Shown piece after piece: positions 540 through 61,567 of a stretch of 64,000 bases of DNA. Source of the stretch: Octopus vulgaris (taxonomy: Eukaryota). Where the stretch lies: positions 47,492,001-47,556,000 of the forward strand of contig OX597815.1 in NCBI GenBank assembly GCA_951406725.2, written 5' to 3'. The translations under genes were made by a program, and so were the position numbers. The notes under the pieces were generated by a model. It worked only from the letters and a program-made list of their open reading frames with translations, did no database searches and was not told the DNA's origin. The first letter of the stretch is position 1. Each line of letters opens with the position of its first letter.

Positions 540-1102
540 TTAGGTTGTCCGGAAAGTTCGTGCCGATTTTTAAAGGAAAGAAAAAGATCAATAAATACTT
601 GCCATTACATTTTTTAATCAACCAAATATAAACCATTTTGTTGCACAATGCGTCTCCACCTTTCCGTTAACTTGCAAATACCCTCTTCCCAGAATTGAGG
701 TGGTTTTATGACAAAGAATTCACCAAGGTCTCTTTTTACGTCATCCAATGAATTTAAATTTTTACCATTAAGACTATTCTGCAGAGACCTGAATAAGTGG
801 AAATCCGAAGGAGCAATATCTGGTGAATATGGAGGGTGGGATAACACATCCCAGCCGAGCTGCAGCAATTTTTGTCTGGTTCCGAAAGCATCAAGTGCCG
901 AAAATAAACTTATCTTCCATTTTAAAGGGTTACAGTATTAACACAGGTTATAGGAACATAAATCTTCTTCCACAAAAAGATAACTTAAACTGTGTTCTAA
1001 ATGGAGGTGTAGTCAAATCCTATTTTATGGACTCAACCATGTTCTAAAATAAGTCGAAAGGTAAGCTACTATAAATCGGCACTAACTTTCCGGATAACCC
1101 AA
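540..1102 (-). mobile_element. Internally deleted mariner transposon (563 bp) with TIRs and TA TSD
   Basis: 30-bp TIRs ttaggttgtccggaaagttcgtgccgattt (540-569) and aaatcggcactaactttccggataacccaa (1073-1102), 27/30 match, TA on both sides. ORF 614-868(-) contains HPPYSPDIAPSDFHLF, the mariner YSPDLAP motif plus third catalytic D. Confidence 0.93.
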
Positions 1103-13589: not shown

Positions 13590-14837
13590 CAGGGTGCGAT
13601 GGGTAAATTGTCGCAAGTCTATATTTCTATTTTATGCATGCGCATTATTTGTTTTATTTTTCCTTTTGTTGATTACACAGTATAGTAGGGTCAGTTGGGC
13701 ATCGTCTGTGAGAAAACAGCGCCATGATGCAATTCACTCTGCCAGAAATTTGGAAACATGCTGTACTGCTTTGCATTCGTGCCGGAAGCTCCAATACGAA
13801 TATTTCAGAGTGTTCGGGTGTCAATCTGAGGATTCGGAAAGAGTTGAATGAATCTAATGGTGATTACGAAGGCACGGCAGCTGGAAAAACTCACCCTGAT
13901 CGTTCTAATAAGAAAATAACTCCTGAATTTGTTGGTGAGATCCAGGCCATGATTGACAACCATCTCTCCAAGTCAATCACGTCCATCGCCAGTAACATAG
14001 GAGTGTCTGAGGCTCTTATCAGACAGGTAGCGCATGAAGAGATTCAGTATCCCTCATACAAGATGAGAAAGGGCATATTTTTATTCCAAGCCATCGAGGA
14101 AAAGAAAAAAGTCCTCAGTAAGAAGCTTTTGAAGAAGCTCAAGCATCCTCTTTATGCCTTAGTTTTTCTTAGACGAGAAAATTGTCTGCCAAGATCAGAT
14201 GGTGAACAGAACAACCGTTGGTTTGCCGTGTCCTCAAAACATGTACCGAGAGGGATAAAAATCAAACATCCAGTCAACATCATTGTGTTTGAATTGATCA
14301 CTAGTGATGGTAACGTTATGCCTCCATTCATTTTCCTACACGGTCTCATACTCAACTCGGAGGCCTACATCAAATGCCTGGAGGAGGTAATGCTCCCCTA
14401 GGTCAAGAGGGTAACTGCTGGAAGACCCTGTGTCTGGAAGCAGGACTCTGCACTATGCCACACAAGTAGAAAAACCCAGTTAACGCTGTCAGGCAATTTC
14501 TGCGACCACATCACCCCCTAACATCTGGTCACGTAACTACCCAGACAACAACCCCCTTGATTATTATGCGTGGAGCGCTGTTGAGTGAGAGAACAACTAA
14601 ACGCCTTGTAACCCTAAAGATGAACTGAAGGCAATGATTATGGTAGCATTGGCATTTAAGAGGTTCCAAAGTCGTCTGGAGGCCAGGGTTGAAGCCAATG
14701 GCGATTTTATTGAATAAATTACTGTTTAATATTTCAAGATATTTTTATGTAATTTTGGTAAATATATCCGTTAAAATAATGTGTCGGTGTTATTTTCATT
14801 TTTACGTATTTTTACACAATTTATTCATTGCAGCCTT
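13590..14837 (+). mobile_element. Near full-length decayed Tc1/mariner DD37D (maT) transposon
   Basis: TA|cagggtgcgatgggtaaattgtc and degenerate right TIR acaatttattcattgcagcctt|TA. ORF 13724-14401 is HTH-like. Downstream reads WKQDSALCHTSRKTQ..(frameshift)NIWSRNYPDNNPLDYYAW, with 37 residues between the second and third D. Confidence 0.88.
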
Positions 14838-32628: not shown

Positions 32629-33160
32629 TCTACCTTAATAGGTATAATATTAAATATTTGAATAAAAGAAGGGTAAAAATACCGCTTGCCAAAGATGAAA
32701 GCAAAAGCTTTAAAAACCACTAATCCTACAATAAATACACACACGATAGTTTTTTCTTTAAACGGAGCGGAACGTTTTAAGTTCGAAACGCACACGAGTT
32801 TGACGTAGGAATATTTTGGAAATAGATGTTATTATCTCCAACTGAAGATTGCAAAGCATGTTTACTCCTGAACAGCATGAAATCAATTGATATTGGGGTA
32901 TGTAAACTATCTCCAAATTCCATCCTGAAGGTAGGCATATTTTTTAAAGTGTTCATTGCTTTGCTCGTGTGTGTATTTATCGTAGGATTGGTGGTTTTTG
33001 AAGCTTTCGCTTTTATTTTTGGCGAGCGGTATTTTTGCCCTTCTTTTATTCAGATACCTGTAAATCGATATAATTGTAGTCTACATCGCAAAAACCTATG
33101 GGTAAATAAAGTTAAGATGCGTGAAATGTCACCCCCACCGACTCATTTTACGTTCCTTCC

Positions 33161-33682
33161 GTGTCAGTTTCCAGCAGTCACGCCTTGAGCACAGACGTAT
33201 ATTGCATTAAGTTTTACCAAAAGCTTGCTGATATTACAGCTCAAATCACTCAGAAGATACAGCAAGCCATTGATGATGATGCCATGGGCAAAACTCAGAT
33301 GAAGGAGTGGCACAACCGCTTCAAACATGGCCAGACCTCAGCGGACAGCAAGGCATGTTCGAGCAGAGCATCTGCAAGCCGAAACGAAGAACCGACTGAG
33401 AAGTTTCGGTGAATAGTCATGGAAGATCATTATGTAGCAGTGAAGAACATTGCTTCCGAAGTAAAAATAAGCACAGAATCAATGCATTTCATCTTAAAGA
33501 AGGATCTGTGCCCGCGGAGAGTGTCGTTGAAATTCGCCCCCAAGATGCTGGCGGAGCAGCAGAAGCAACTCTGTATGGAAATTGCTCAGGATATGCTGCA
33601 CTCTGCAAACCACGAACCAGGCTTCAAGAAAACCACCATCACAAGTGAAGAGACACGGGGTTATGGTCTCTGCTCCATGTGA
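33161..33682 (+). pseudogene. Mariner transposase N-terminal half, truncated by SINE A (33683-33805)
   Basis: YCIKF..KL..IQQAIDDDAMGKTQMKEWHNRFKHG..*..KFAPKML (WVPxxL motif)..TITSEETRGYG (decayed TGDETW). Confidence 0.85.
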
Positions 33683-37271: not shown

Positions 37272-37306
37272 TTTTTCTGATGAAGGATTCTGTCCGAAAC
37301 GTTAAG
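37272..37306 (+). ncRNA. Minimal hammerhead-ribozyme motif
   Basis: CUGAUGA-A-GGA(UUCUG)UCC-GAAAC-GUU; palindromic AACGUU stem III; weak stem I. Confidence 0.55.
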
Positions 37307-38929: not shown

Positions 38930-39020
38930 AGTACGTACGTATGTATGTATGTATATATACATTACACATTCATACATGCACTGAGACGCACTCAAAACCA
39001 TACAGATTTATTTTAATAAA

Positions 39021-39108
39021 AACCTAAGCTTTCACCCTATTCTAGGGTTCGTCAGATTATGATTGTATTTTATACCTGATGAACATTGTATCAAAGTGAG
39101 AGCAGGTT
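39021..39108. ncRNA. Back-to-back pair of hammerhead-like motifs
   Basis: Minus: CUGACGA-ACCCUA(GAA)UAGGGU-GAAAGCUU. Plus: CUGAUGA-ACAUUG(UAU)CAAAGU-GAGAGC (core mutated). Stem I is poor in both. Confidence 0.5.
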
Positions 39109-45592: not shown

Positions 45593-45868
45593 TTATTTCT
45601 CATTGCCTTGAAATACTTATGATGACAACAACGCACAAGTCTCGCTTGTAAGAGTAATGTTTCTAAATATACAAGATGCGGGTTCGTGTGCCGGGGAAGG
45701 CGTTCAACTTGATTGTTTTTTTTTCTCCGAAAGTGTGGTTCATCATCCCAGTATTCGCAGGCTGGTAATTATATCTTTATGTGCTTCGTGATCCACTGTT
45801 CCGACGAAGAAATATATTCATTAAATTTATAAAATAAAATCTTTCGTATTAGAAGGTATGTATATATA

Positions 45869-45920
<52 letters not shown>

Positions 45921-46154
45921 GCCCTATCTAGGTTTCGGCGAAAAAATCGACCTCAGCACTTTTCAAAGCCTGGTATTTATTCTGTCAGTGTTTTATGCAG
46001 AACCGCAAACTTACGAGGACGTAAACACAGCAACACCAGTTGTCAACCTGTGTGCGTGTGTGTATATGGAGAGATGGACCAATCACAAGCACAATTACAC
46101 ACACAAACTAAAAGAAGTCTGTCCTTTATGTATACATATACATACATACATACA

Positions 46155-46185
<31 letters not shown>

Positions 46186-46590
46186 GTATGTATGTGTGTG
46201 TGTGTATGTGTGTGCATTAAAGTACATGATTATAAAAACAATTATGATTAAGGGCACTGGAACGCCAGTGCCTATACGTTAGAAGTAGATGTGAAATACC
46301 TATAATTCACTTTAAATTTATTCTCTATTTATAACCCAAGGCCAAATGCGAGGAAATGAGCAAGAAGGTTTACAAATTTCGAATAATCCTAATCTTAAGA
46401 TTTTGTGTTCTGTAATGAAGATTACTTTGTACTCATCCGTAGAGATAAACCGACAATACAGAAATGAAAAATATATATATACCTATTGATACATTTTTGC
46501 GTACAGATACCAATACAAACATGCATTTCCCGTTTATATATTACATCTAATCGCCTATCTCGTAATATACACGCGGGAAATGCATACATG

Positions 46591-51722: not shown

Positions 51723-51950
51723 TATTTCTTTATTACCCACAAGGGGCTAAACTTAGAGGGGACAAACAAGGACAGACATAGGTATTAAGTCGATTACATC
51801 GACCCCAGTGCGGAACTGGTACTTAATTTATTGACCCCAAAAGGATGAAAGGCAAAGTCAACCTCGGAGGAATTTGAACTCACAACGTAACGGCAGACGA
51901 AATACCGCTAAGCATTTCGCCCGGCGTGCTAACGTTTCTGCCAGCTCGCC
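51723..51950 (-). mobile_element. SINE family A monomer with perfect 17-bp TSD
   Basis: TSD agactagaaaccaaacc at 51706-51722 and 51951-51967. Confidence 0.93.
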
Positions 51951-52574
51951 AGACTAGAAACCAAACCATCTGTAGATCCACTAACTGCCTGGAGGTGGCA
52001 ATGCGCCACCAACTGGGCAAAAGAAAAGTAATTATTAGCATAAGTGTTGTAGGTTCGTTAGTGAACGTAAGTTCAGTCTCTGGGTCAGTGAAAATTTATC
52101 TACTCTTGTTAAACTGTTACAAACTATTAGATTCATAAGAAAAAGAAACTGGAATGGAGAGTATCACGTATATAAGCGACAGATTGAGCGATCTATCTCC
52201 GGTGGATTTAATACATCAAGCATTTGGAAAGGCCGGAGAGTACAACAACTGAAACGTTTTAAATTTTGGCAAACGGCCAAGAAGTTCGGGGAGGGGGTAA
52301 GTCGATTACATTGACCCCAGCGCTTAGCTTATATATCGTGCAAGTTTCTAAATTTGTGTTAGAAACAGCACAATAACGTAAACATACATAATCACATACT
52401 CAATATATGTGTGTTGTCAAGCGTTACAAGGCAGTCTTTTGTAAATCGCTTCGGTAGTGGAGGATGTGACACAAATGAGCGTGAATAAACTCGAAATATA
52501 GGTGTCTGTCTCTCTCGTTCACTTTCGAGGCAATCTCGTTTCGACTAGCCTTGAAATATGCTGTGCTTTTTAAC

Positions 52575-52605
<31 letters not shown>

Positions 52606-52687
52606 GTCCCGGGTTGATTCGGGGTTAACCACAGTAAGTAAGGTACTCAATACATAGCAGAGTAAAATTAATTTATTATATAGAAGG

Positions 52688-52738
52688 AGCTTCTACAGGA
52701 CTAGTACTGTTTCATTCAAGAGAAATCTTCAGGAAGCT
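52688..52738 (-). ncRNA. Type I hammerhead ribozyme (left arm)
   Basis: Exact reverse complement of 54891-54941. Confidence 0.75.
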
Positions 52739-53113
52739 ATTTAACAAGAATTGTATTAGCATTTATACATTTAGGCAGGTTTAAAGGAGTGGTGGTGGGG
52801 GACTTTTTGGGGGTAGGCATAGCGCAAAATATCATACTTGGGGGAGTGGTCAAGGAGTCAGTGGTAAGTTAGATGAAAGAATAGATAAATAAAAAAATAA
52901 AAAAATAAAAAATAAAAAAATAAAATAAAAAAATAAAAAAATAAAAAATATAAAAAATATATATAAAAAAATATATATATAAAATATATATATAAAAAAA
53001 TATATATAAAAAAAAGGGGGGATAGAGTTATAGGTAAATAAGGAGATTCTCACTTATACCTATACACACATGTATACGTATCTACACACACATACATACA
53101 TACACATATATAT

Positions 53114-53162
<49 letters not shown>

Positions 53163-54459
53163 CATATGTACACACATACATACATATCTACATACACACA
53201 TACATACACCCGCCCACATATACAAATTTATACACATGCACATGCCTATACCTGTCTACACATACACACACGTATATATGCATACACTCACTCCCATGCA
53301 TGCACGCATACACACATGTATATATATATATATATATATACCCACGACCACACATACATATATACACATAAAAATATATATTCATACGCACATACACTCA
53401 TGCACACACAACACACCTAGTTCCCTATATACACATATTTACACCTATATATACATACACCCACATACACCTATGTACACATATATATATATAAACATAT
53501 ACACGCATACATATATATACATGTGTGCACATACATACATACACACATATATACATACACATACACATACACATGTGTACCTATACATACCTACACATAC
53601 ACACATACATACATACAAATATACATATACATATATATATATACAATCCAATACAGGCCCATTCCCTAATTTTAATTTTATTATCTTCATTTATTACTTT
53701 TGTTATCTTTGATCGCTAGGGCTAAGAATCCTGGCAATGGCTGCATGTCCATTTGTCTGTCTACTAGAAGGCAAGTACTCATTCCCGCACGCACACTCAT
53801 TAGCACGTACATTCACCCATTCGTACACTCATACACATACACGTACGCACGCGTTATATTCATACATACAAACATCTACATACGTTCACGTATATACACA
53901 TACGTACTCGTACCTACAGATTCGTGTCTACACTTTAGGAGGCTAGTCTATACATATACACCAATAAATATACATATATATATATATATACCCGCATATA
54001 CATACACACACACACATATATACTCCTACATACAGATACATACCTATATATATATATACAATATATATATATATATATATATATACATACATACACATAC
54101 ACATACACACATACATATACACACACATACATACACATATATATACATACACAAACATATATACACACATATATATATACATACACACATACACACATAC
54201 ATACGTATACATACATACATACATCCATACATCCATACTTACATGCATTTATACGCATACACACACCCACACATACACGTGGGTATATATATATATATAT
54301 ATACATGTGTGTATGCGTGCATGCATGGGAGTGAGTGTATGCATATATACGTGTGTGTATGTGTAGACAGGTATAGGCATGTGCATGTGTATAAATTTGT
54401 ATATGTGGGCGGGTGTATGTTTGTGTGTATGTAGATATGTATGTATGTGTGTACATATG

Positions 54460-54512
<53 letters not shown>

Positions 54513-54890
54513 ATATATATGTGTATGTATGTATGTGTGTGTAGATACGTATACATGTGTGTATAGGTATAAGTGAGAATCTCCTTATTTACCTATAACT
54601 CTATCCCCCCTTTTTTTATATATATATTTTTTTATATATATATTTTATATATATATTTTTTTATATATATTTTTTATATTTTTTATTTTTTTATTTTTTT
54701 ATTTTATTTTTTTATTTTTTTATTTTTTTATTTTTTTATTTATCTATTCTTTCATCTAACTTACCACTGACTCCTTTGACCACTCCCCCAAGTATGATAT
54801 TTTGCGCTATGCCTACCCCCAAAAAGTCCCCCACCACCACTCCTTTAAACCTGCCTAAATGTATAAATGCTAATACAATTCTTGTTAAAT

Positions 54891-54941
54891 AGCTTCCTGA
54901 AGATTTCTCTTGAATGAAACAGTACTAGTCCTGTAGAAGCT
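54891..54941 (+). ncRNA. Type I hammerhead ribozyme (right arm)
   Basis: AGCUUC-CUGAAGA-U-UUC(UCUU)GAA-U-GAA-ACAG(UACUAGUC)CUGU-A^GAAGCU: 6-bp stem I, intact core, 4-bp stem III with palindromic ACUAGU loop, GUA site (cleavage after 54935). Confidence 0.75.
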
Positions 54942-55328
54942 CCTTCTATATAATAAATATATATATATATATATATATAGTGTTAAAAAACACAGCATAT
55001 TTCAAGGCTATATATATATTTGTATATCTTTTTATGTATTTATATATTTATAATGCCAACGTATTTTTAAATATTAAATATGTATATGTTTATATACTTG
55101 TGTTTTAATACTGTATTATCTGAAACTTTATACTGATTGATTAATGTCCAATGAAAGTACACGTATATATTGAATGTTCTATTGGATAATAGGTCATGTT
55201 CTTCTAGTTTTCCGCTGGTATTGCCTCCTTTGAAATTATAAATTGGAACTTAGCTCAATTAGAGGACTTTAATTCTAACCTGTTTCTTAGCATTGTTAAA
55301 GTTAACAATCTCTACATAACATTGTGTA

Positions 55329-55368
<40 letters not shown>

Positions 55369-56728
55369 AAGGATCACCCATAGACGAATTACCGCAGCTT
55401 TGTAGTGTTTAACAACACATAAACTGATGTTGATAATGAGTTGCATTTAATACAAAATTCGAATTCTCTTTTACTTGTACGATGCTTTTGCATATCAGCA
55501 CATGAATTTTACGCTATTTGTATATATACTTCTGACTGGCTGTTGCGATTCGTTTCGGAGTGGAGGAGTATGTGACACTAATGATATCGGTATCTGTCGC
55601 ACTCATTCACTTTCGGAACGATTTCGCTTCACCAAGCTATGAAGTATGCTACTTGTTTTCAAAACTATACGTCTTTAAAGGAATCGCTCTCATACAAAAT
55701 ACTGCAACTTTGTGGTGATATTGGTAATGTATATATAATGTATTCTATCATAATATTTCCACATCGTTTCATTTTATTGAACCTCATTTTATGCCCGTTT
55801 TACTTCTGCTAATTCGTTTTTTCTTCTTGATGATCTTGAAATGACTATCTGAATAATGGTTAACTTTTGAAGTGTTAAAAATATTGATATAGCCTAAATC
55901 TTCAGCCATTTTGTAGTTTTTTTCCGTGACATTTCTTCATCATCATCCTAGCTTGTGAAAAAAAAAGGAGCAAATGTAATAAATAAAAGCTTATCTTGAA
56001 TCAGCAATAAATCTATCATCGTCACCTGTTCTTTTGCTCCGTTCTTCTTCCGGTCTCAAGAGCGCGTCCATATTGTTTCATGTTTCGTTGTTTAATGTAT
56101 TTTTCTCTCCAGTTAACAATAGTTAATAACTTGACCGTTTTTTTATAGTATGAGCATGCACGTGTGTGAGTGTGTGTGAGTGTGTGTGTGGTTGTGCGCG
56201 CGTGCACGTTGTATAATTTTTAATGAATAAGTTTGTTATTTATTTGTTATACTTTGCTGTTTGTTAATTTGTGCAATTTGTATAGAATGCATAGCAACCG
56301 GACACGGTTGCAGTAAATCTCTCAACAGCCTCTCGTATAATCGCATATTTGTACCAATTCCTCGGCGATACCATAAATCAAAAAGCGGAACCCAGAAGAG
56401 AGAGACAGAGAGGAAAAGAGAGAGAAGGAGAGAGAGGGAAAAAGAAAGAATTCTTGAAATATTGTTTCTTGCAAGTTTTCATTACTTTTTTTTTTTTTTT
56501 TTGTGATGTATTTTTAAATCAAGCAGATAAACACAGTTGAGCTAATACTATGTAATATCATTAATGTAGGGTCTGAATATGCACACTGGCAATATATTAG
56601 CCAAAATAGAATATAGTTTAACGTGTACGTGTGTATATATCTGAATGCGTGAGTGGTATTTGTCACTAACGCGCGCTTCCCATTAGTGCATCTGTTCAAA
56701 TACACGAGTATATATATGGTGTACAGTG

Positions 56729-60990: not shown

Positions 60991-61324
60991 TCTGGTTCCC
61001 TTTCTGCTTGCCTTTTATTTTTTTTATTTTCTGCAGATTTTAACTTGCTTCTATTCAACCTGATCTTCACTCACATCAGTCTGAACAACCTTGGTGAGCC
61101 ACAAAAACAAAAACAAAAAAAAATTGCGCGTCTCTCCAACTGTGGCTAAATATTGAAAGAAACATCCAACTAAATTAAACGTTTTAAACAGCATGTCTAC
61201 TTCTGAAATATTTACATTATTTGTATAGTTATTCGATGAACGACTTCATTGTGAATTTTTCTATCTTTTTGCCTTTTCCGAATCGCTAAGTTACGGCGAC
61301 ATAAACATACCAACACCAATTGTA

Positions 61325-61567
61325 ATTATTTACATTATTTACATTCGATGGATATTTGTCTTCATCTTGTTTGTTGTTAACACAACGTTTCAGCAGATAT
61401 ACACAGCAGCCTTCGTCAGGTGTCTGATGAAAACACCTGATGAAGGCTAGAGGGTACATCAGCCGAAACGTAGTGCTAACAACAAACAAGATGAGGACAA
61501 ATACCCGTCGAATGTAAATAATGTAAATAATGTACACAATCCCTCATCTCTTAAATATAGAACTGTA
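61325..61567. mobile_element. Palindromic mini-element with two outward-facing hammerhead motifs, inserted into a SINE B copy (61265-61715, minus)
   Basis: Arms 61325-61423 and 61433-61531. Plus motif CAC-CUGAUGA-A-GGCU..AGCC-GAAAC-GUA^GUG (61434-61475); minus motif ACAC-CUGACGA..GAAAC-GUU^GUGU. Confidence 0.7.

Follow-up and report, generated by a model that had tools for sequence, protein, structure and literature searches.

We analyzed a 64,000 bp stretch of the Octopus vulgaris genome (assembly GCA_951406725.2, contig OX597815.1, positions 47,492,001 to 47,556,000; hereafter the window), which is AT-rich, microsatellite-rich DNA of animal type, and focused on the 2,357 nt element located at positions 52602-54958. 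This element is very probably an insertion of the Penelope-like element (PLE) type, whether truncated coding, non-autonomous or with a captured body. The reading that we prefer, and in which our confidence is evenly balanced, is that it constitutes a young, 5′-truncated insertion that derives from a high-copy Penelope-like retrotransposon, with a coding part expected further 5′ in longer copies. A hammerhead ribozyme motif is present twice because the end of the element was probably copied back on itself at insertion. A previous reading of the same DNA, based on the letters alone (the sequence-only reading), had described a foldback element with twin hammerheads that lacks an open reading frame (ORF), and had considered PLEs and retrozymes as its relatives.

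Structure of the element

The element contains two near-identical inverted arms, located at 52671-53346 (676 nt) and 54278-54958 (681 nt). In agreement with the ~680 bp arms noticed previously, they differ by only one substitution and nine gap columns in five indels, all of which fall within A runs or CA/TA runs. The arms are separated by an unpaired spacer of 931 nt (53347-54277, minus strand), in which two CA/TA-rich blocks flank a less repetitive block of ~315 nt (53646-53960). A gap in the arm alignment delineates a 69 nt outward extension that is present on the left arm only (52602-52670, minus strand); this extension is the 3′ tail, and it was deeply covered in two of the sequencing runs described below (X1 and X9). 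Thus, the designation foldback element is appropriate for the inverted arms and not for the symmetry, because the tail is found on one arm only.

The strand bias of dinucleotides differs between the arms. On the plus strand, CA and AC outnumber TG and GT in the left arm (103 versus 15) and in the spacer (314 versus 40), whereas the reverse is seen in the right arm (15 versus 105). Since the spacer resembles the left arm in composition and not the right one, the element consists of a minus-strand copy running from 54277 to 52602 plus an inverted, shorter copy. It reads as a 1,676 nt minus-strand copy with a 69 nt tail (52602-54277), joined head-to-head to a 681 nt tail-less inverted copy of its own 3′ end, which the arm alignment places on the plus strand at 54278-54958. 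The sense strand of the main copy, which is probably 5′-truncated, is GU-rich and no coding frame was found on it. The head-to-head junction contains a CACGTG palindrome (54276-54281).

Each copy contains one type I hammerhead motif near its end. The motif of the main copy was detected by a descriptor scan at 52688-52738 on the minus strand (predicted cut after 52694), and an identical motif is present in the inverted copy at 54891-54941 on the plus strand. The GUA site and the predicted cut after 54935 given by the sequence-only reading were recovered, and so was the position of AATAAA, which starts 10 nt past helix I and 17 nt past the predicted cut. At the tail-less 3′ boundary (52672-52682, minus strand; mirrored at 54947-54957, plus strand) this AATAAA, which is poly(A)-signal-like, overlaps a TATAWAA sequence, which is TATA-box-like. 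Judged by its letters, the overlap located 3′ of the hammerhead may serve both for polyadenylation and as a promoter of the unit that follows. A common variant at 52678 (4-41% of depth) alters only the W of TATAWAA and leaves AATAAA intact.

As had been noted before, the body is of the low-complexity CA/TA kind: alternating purine-pyrimidine runs cover 1,145 of the 2,357 nt (49%), and there are in addition two A/T-only tracts of ~130 nt, one at 52887-53015, U-rich in the sense RNA, and its mirror at about 54612-54741. The open frames in the element are low-complexity only and the four element frames scanned gave no Pfam match, which confirms that it is ORF-less; on the basis of the frame listing and these scans, no ORF for a reverse transcriptase (RT) plus GIY-YIG endonuclease is present within this copy. 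Neither a direct pseudo-long terminal repeat (pseudo-LTR) nor a partial tandem was found, in that the only counterpart of the tail and hammerhead region within the window is the inverted arm. The spacer gave only low-complexity matches elsewhere in the window. Finally, the element indeed sits in (TA)n, with tracts at 52576-52601 on the left and 54957-54979 on the right. In a (TA)n target, a direct target duplication is unreadable.

The 3′ end is a high-copy repeat with recurring junctions

Evidence for a family was obtained from contigs of sequencing runs aligned to the last 285 nt of the main copy only (52602-52886). This end was present in 20 of the 24 runs listed in a survey, covering eight studies (six when two studies with a possible source sample are left out) and three organism labels. 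Contigs were aligned for four runs from three studies, which yielded 12,506 (X1), 1,327 (X9), 105 (X7) and 22 (X18) aligned contigs, most of them at least 90% alike; the summed contig depth is not a copy number. The 3′ end is clearly a high-copy repeat. The numbers for X1 and X9 contradict a single-copy motif, which the sequence-only reading had named as an outcome that would speak against it.

Among the listed loose ends of these contigs several junctions recur. Tail-less ends joined directly to (TA)n at 52671/52667 were present in 19 contigs of X1, 14+4 of X9 and 1+1 of X7, and these junctions reproduce the tail-less end of the right arm; tailed and tail-less ends thus both recur in the family. 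Inversions centered on AGCT at the 5′ edge of the hammerhead (52738) were present in 19 contigs of X1 and one of X18. Loose ends running into the A-rich tract past 52886 were found in 42 contigs of X1, 11 of X9 and two of X7. In addition, other bodies were observed behind 52812-52819, with only the last ~215 nt in common (2+2 contigs of X1 and 1+1 of X7). In one X1 contig, of depth 30.7, 52738 is followed after a single letter by 52677, which possibly represents a short tandem of the motif.

Two side observations concern the inversions. Those at 52738 imply mini-palindromes of little more than two hammerheads, and the consensus of the inverted loose ends in X1 (agreement 0.76) suggests a subfamily with U-A in place of the U·U in helix II described below.

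These junctions bear on the possibility that the element is an assembly or chimeric-read foldback artefact, in which one real copy was mirrored. Such an origin would fit the arm differences, which are mostly run-length indels, and the mirror reaching into 30 bp of flank. However, the mirror omits the 69 nt tail at the very point at which other copies give way to (TA)n, leaves a 931 nt spacer unpaired and resumes in unrelated flank, the inversions recur in contigs of two studies, and the layout is typical of PLEs. The recurrence of both tail-less (TA)n ends and inversions at the hammerhead edge makes a lone artefact unlikely, and overall we regard this explanation as very improbable. The junctions bear also on a foldback-type DNA transposon or miniature inverted-repeat transposable element with long terminal inverted repeats, in which the hammerhead motif would be incidental. 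The long near-perfect inverted arms, the TA context and the lack of an ORF would be in line with such an element, but its ends are asymmetric due to the tail, the inversion points vary among copies, and variation in the family spares the catalytic core except for N7 (see below). We therefore consider it highly unlikely.

A scan of metagenomes with a strict hammerhead pattern gave no matches. Matches to a loose pattern (19 metagenome and five viral contigs) were attributed to chance, as none of the 24 had a helix III together with a helix I of at least 4 bp, or a BLAST match to the element.

The layout fits a truncated Penelope-like insertion

It is established that PLEs insert by target-primed reverse transcription after a GIY-YIG endonuclease has nicked the target, with 5′ truncation as a usual outcome. 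In the insertion event that we propose, the GIY-YIG endonuclease of a PLE would have nicked the (TA)n target, within which synthesis would have been primed. Starting at the tail end of the RNA, the RT would have copied the hammerhead and then the microsatellite-rich 3′ region, stopping after ~1.7 kb. Synthesis would then have switched to the new strand and copied back ~680 nt, and this copy-back would have ended at AATAAA and joined (TA)n without a tail. The second hammerhead would be a by-product of copy-back without a separate role.

The features of this insertion are those reported for PLEs, which supports the Penelope link drawn in the sequence-only reading. Published PLE insertions are 5′-truncated, with a 30-40 bp tail that is often one-sided and, often, a truncated copy in inverted orientation at their 5′ side; PLEs also carry hammerheads near their 3′ ends and have a bias for microsatellite targets (PMC8557442). 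Palindromes have been described at inverted junctions of PLEs, and Arkhipova et al. 2013 read these inversions as self-priming on an antisense template (PMC3846280); our data do not separate self-priming from the copy-back proposed here. Hammerheads are present in the terminal repeats of PLEs, and opposite-strand pairs 100-700 bp apart were considered to derive probably from truncated PLEs (PMC4209133). Accordingly, the insertion studied here displays an inverted 5′-truncated copy at its 5′ end, a one-sided tail and a type I motif near its 3′ end, and its last 285 nt are multi-copy, form (TA)n junctions and have variable breakpoints, 52738 among them.

A coding part further 5′ is compatible with what is known of PLEs and of this genome. 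Coding PLEs such as Pen1_Av can have long non-coding 3′ spacers of 0.9-1.5 kb, described as captured (PMC3846280). An annotation of O. vulgaris lists 190 Penelope-like families that make up 6.83% of the genome; the Penelope insertions classed as recently active number 329 and span 1,795,539 bp (PMC13282606). Their mean of ~5.5 kb leaves room for an ORF plus a 3′ region like the one described here. The repeat library of that study may already include this family. We found no published description of the family, or of a cephalopod PLE hammerhead, in a search that Repbase, Dfam and subscription papers were outside of.

Several observations weigh against a truncated coding PLE. The element contains no RT or GIY-YIG frame and no PLE ORF could yet be tied to the family; a direct pseudo-LTR or tandem unit is lacking in this copy; and the tail measures 69 nt versus the published 30-40 bp. 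The G10.1-C11.1 pair that animal PLE motifs typically have is missing from the hammerhead, whose helix III is also longer (PMC4209133). Moreover, half of the 1.7 kb is microsatellite-like, and no such PLE 3′ region was found in the accessible parts of the literature examined. Lastly, no single aligned contig spans all 285 nt, and the alignment ends at 52886, short of the inversion junction at 54277/54278.

The lack of coding sequence raises the possibility, which we consider less likely though serious, of a dedicated non-autonomous PLE family. Its unit would be non-coding and microsatellite-rich, measure at least 1.7 kb and, via a common 3′ end, rely on an RT and endonuclease supplied by a coding PLE; insertion would proceed as proposed above. 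The 1.68 kb without a coding trace would be explained directly, and the other bodies behind 52812-52819 are what a 3′ end shared by several bodies would produce; besides, MRC1 and Chlamys-N4 have already been published as non-autonomous PLEs (PMC8557442, PMC9977147). On the other hand, no tandem junction after the tail was present among the listed loose ends. Since 5′ truncation is usual for PLE copies (PMC8557442, PMC8969392, PMC9977147), a single ORF-less copy is uninformative on this point. A third explanation, which appears improbable, is that only the last few hundred bases are mobile and that the microsatellite-rich body is host DNA that was captured once. Capture of host DNA is reported for Adineta Penelope elements and extends to non-coding DNA located between solo pseudo-LTRs (PMC3846280), and the body is similar in kind to the (CA/TA) DNA in the background of the window; but the family reaches at least 52886, and into the A-rich tract in three of the four runs, which argues against capture.

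The hammerhead motif is an unusual variant

Both copies of the motif have the core CUGAAGA...GAAA...GUA, a helix I of 6 bp and a helix III of 4 bp with an 8 nt loop. Helix II is 3 bp, and positions 10.1 and 11.1 are both U, resulting in a U·U closing. None of 200 dinucleotide shuffles of the window contained a motif with at least 6, 3 and 4 bp in helices I, II and III, respectively, thresholds that were chosen after the motif had been seen and that an unrelated site in the window (32842) narrowly missed. In predicted folding, the hammerhead fold has an energy of -7.3 kcal/mol versus -8.5 kcal/mol for the minimum-energy fold (a gap of 0.3-1.2 kcal/mol, depending on the allele), helix II forms with a probability of 0.06-0.27, and the fold energy does not surpass that of shuffles. 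The description "fully paired" in the sequence-only reading is therefore not maintained, given the short, U·U-closed helix II and its low predicted probability. Rfam gave no hammerhead match at E≤10 on 52600-52890, and a search of the whole window at E≤5 gave, among the 150 of 399 matches listed, chance miRNA-type matches on microsatellites.

Variation among the aligned contigs was informative for both the loop and the core. At base 52705 in loop III, the letter of the window is replaced in most of the depth of each of the four runs (72%, 88%, 88% and 56%). The majority variant retains only the 4 nt palindrome CUAG, so that the 6 nt ACUAGU palindrome, correctly seen in the window copy, is a minority allele and not typical of the family. 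Pairing between the loops III of two copies is still predicted for the variant (-12.8 versus -15.2 kcal/mol). In the core, variation of at least 3% in the two large runs was limited to N7 (18% and 11%), which is a free position; this confinement fits selection on a hammerhead. A U·U in the basal position of helix II is also known from the axolotl hammerhead HHR_Amex2, which shows 22% cleavage in 1 h as a monomer and better cleavage as a dimer (PMC7229834). The octopus motif is predicted to be a weak cutter aided by dimer formation, which would act on tandem precursor RNAs elsewhere in the family. According to PMC8557442, the role of hammerheads in PLEs with an endonuclease is unclear.

The two motifs are of opposite polarity, and each strand has one of them in sense. 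In a predicted read-through transcript all 51 nt of the hammerhead pair with the far arm. Because of the opposite polarity, the two hammerheads cannot cooperate or release a retrozyme circle in this copy; hence there are twin motifs of type I, but not cooperating twin ribozymes. This bears directly on a retrozyme, in which the twin hammerheads would excise a unit RNA that circularizes and re-inserts. The element is non-coding and has a type I hammerhead with loop III pairing predicted between copies (-12.8 to -15.2 kcal/mol), and the X1 contig joining 52738 to 52677 may be a short tandem. Against this stand the opposite polarity, the predicted full pairing of the sense hammerhead with the far arm, and the known retrozyme units, which are arranged head-to-tail and measure 150-450 bp (PMC7229834) or 51-972 bp (10.64898/2026.07.22.740005). 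Since its hammerheads are opposed and non-tandem, the retrozyme-like reading does not hold for this copy, and we assign it a very small probability.

Other hammerhead-like sequences were observed in the window. An older head-to-head inverted pair with arms of ~100 nt that are ~88% alike (61321-61423 and 61433-61536) contains minimal hammerhead-like cores without helix III at 61419 (minus strand) and 61437 (plus strand), and resembles the stump of another PLE family. Further core-like motifs are located at 39018-39055 (minus strand; helix II of 6 bp and helix I of 4 bp) and at 37277-37299 (plus strand).

A-to-G changes at the predicted cleavage site

In run X7, A-to-G changes on the hammerhead strand were present at 52691, 52694 (the cleavage-site base) and 52702 in 6-12% of depth (9-11 contigs each). 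The same three positions were changed in 3-4% of depth in X18 (two to three contigs) and in 0-0.04% in X1 and X9. X7 and X18 are only presumed to be RNA, X1 and X9 are of unrecorded type, and the comparison is one between runs and not between matched DNA and RNA. A G at the cleavage position blocks hammerhead cleavage. The excess is a weak hint that would fit A-to-I editing of foldback RNA or the persistence of molecules that escaped cutting. In X7 and X18, a rare diverged copy bearing mixed changes is over-represented too, and an expressed diverged subfamily explains the A-to-G excess as well. If the excess is real, the family would offer an in vivo test of the role of the hammerhead in endonuclease-bearing PLEs.

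A dedicated non-autonomous family and a real RNA-level effect at the cleavage site might hold jointly, a combination to which we give little credence. It would involve thousands of copies with a body that is about half CA/TA microsatellite, seeding new (TA)n targets for itself; copy-back could run into host DNA, as in the 30 bp inverted flank described next, and foldback transcripts would be A-to-I edited at the adenosine of the cleavage site or uncut variants would survive. If true, this combination would provide an in vivo read-out of PLE hammerhead activity.

An inverted duplication flanks the element

The 30 bp immediately left of the left (TA)n tract (52546-52575), which form the end of an older dispersed repeat, are duplicated in inverted orientation beyond the right tract at 54981-55010, past which come a short TA run and then flank of unrelated sequence. 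The two sequences are identical at 29 of 30 positions, with one further difference at the border of the TA run. At the substitution rate of the arms, one change in 30 has a probability of 0.04 and two in 31 a probability of 0.001. The window contains 44 (TA)n tracts of at least 16 nt, eight of which are in or adjoin the element. In the remaining 36, every high inverted-flank score was attributed to a microsatellite flank on inspection of the printed 30 nt by eye, which makes the 30 bp flank duplication unusual. The older repeat is present in two diverged copies (~52380-52575 and 55470-55660; ~75% over the best 67 nt), the first of which stops at the (TA)n target of the element. The duplication may represent a pre-existing hairpin target, the reading to which the above probabilities relate, or a copy-back that continued into host DNA; this is one locus and it allows both readings. 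No published description of an inverted flank duplication at PLE insertions was found, Repbase, Dfam and subscription papers being outside this search as well.

Other repeats in the window

Pfam analysis covered 143 frames, made up of three element frames and the 140 longest among 229 that are non-repetitive, and gave two weak matches, none of them in the element. One, a marginal match to GIY_YIG_domain at 45825-46217 (22.1 bits; cut-off 21.4), is probably spurious, as this frame is presumably the translation of a short interspersed nuclear element (SINE). A dispersed SINE-like repeat is present at ~51756-51955 and at other sites in the window; we take it to be an octopus SINE, and a literature search on its motif found nothing. 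A decayed Tc1/mariner-like transposase fragment was seen at 33125-33409 (plus strand; HTH_48 match below cut-off), and 614-937 (minus strand) and 13712-14401 (plus strand) are, by resemblance, presumably fragments of the same kind. No tRNA genes were found in the window.

Comparison with known systems

The architecture of the element is that of an already known kind of PLE insertion. What it adds is an abundant, young, hammerhead-bearing family of PLE type with an unusual hammerhead variant, characterized by a U·U-closed helix II and a 4 bp helix III, which is of use in annotating the repeats of an animal genome rich in microsatellites. Should the body prove to be family-wide, the family would be one source of the microsatellites of this genome.

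The Octopus Naiad PLEs (Naiad_Obim and Naiad_Ovul; supplement of PMC8557442) share the preference for (TA)n. Unlike the element, which has a complete type I motif, Naiads lack canonical hammerheads and have been described as old remnants in cephalopods (PMC8557442); four short element motifs gave no matches in the accessible part of that supplement, searched on one strand and with line breaks that can hide matches. Animal non-LTR retrozymes (PMC7229834; 10.64898/2026.07.22.740005) are likewise non-coding, have a type I hammerhead and are proposed to depend on PLEs, whereas the element is non-tandem, has hammerheads of opposite polarity and forms a unit longer than any consensus reported in the accessible parts of these sources.

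With the hammerheads of animal PLEs (PMC4209133) the motif shares the type I core, a palindromic loop III suited to dimers and the occurrence as opposite-strand pairs. It differs in lacking G10.1-C11.1, in its helix II of 3 bp versus 6-8 bp, and in its helix III of 4 bp with an 8 nt loop, helix III being absent or very short in the typical published motifs. The U·U at the base of helix II is shared with axolotl HHR_Amex2 (PMC7229834).

A non-coding body on a PLE-type 3′ end and microsatellite targets are also features of the non-autonomous PLEs MRC1 and Chlamys-N4_cRei (PMC8557442, PMC9977147) and of the Penelope-end captures of Adineta (PMC3846280). Chlamys-9 and Chlamys-N4 form a pair in Chlamydomonas (PMC9977147). 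Most Chlamys elements, unlike the one described here, lack canonical hammerheads.

Compared with the endonuclease-bearing PLEs (Penelope/Poseidon and Neptune; PMC8557442, PMC3846280), the element stands apart in having neither an ORF nor a direct pseudo-LTR, a body that is half CA/TA low-complexity DNA, and a 30 bp inverted flank duplication. It resembles them in the combination of a 5′-truncated copy with an inverted shorter one, the one-sided tail, the 3′ hammerhead, the microsatellite target that hides a target duplication, and the short palindrome at the junction, here CACGTG.

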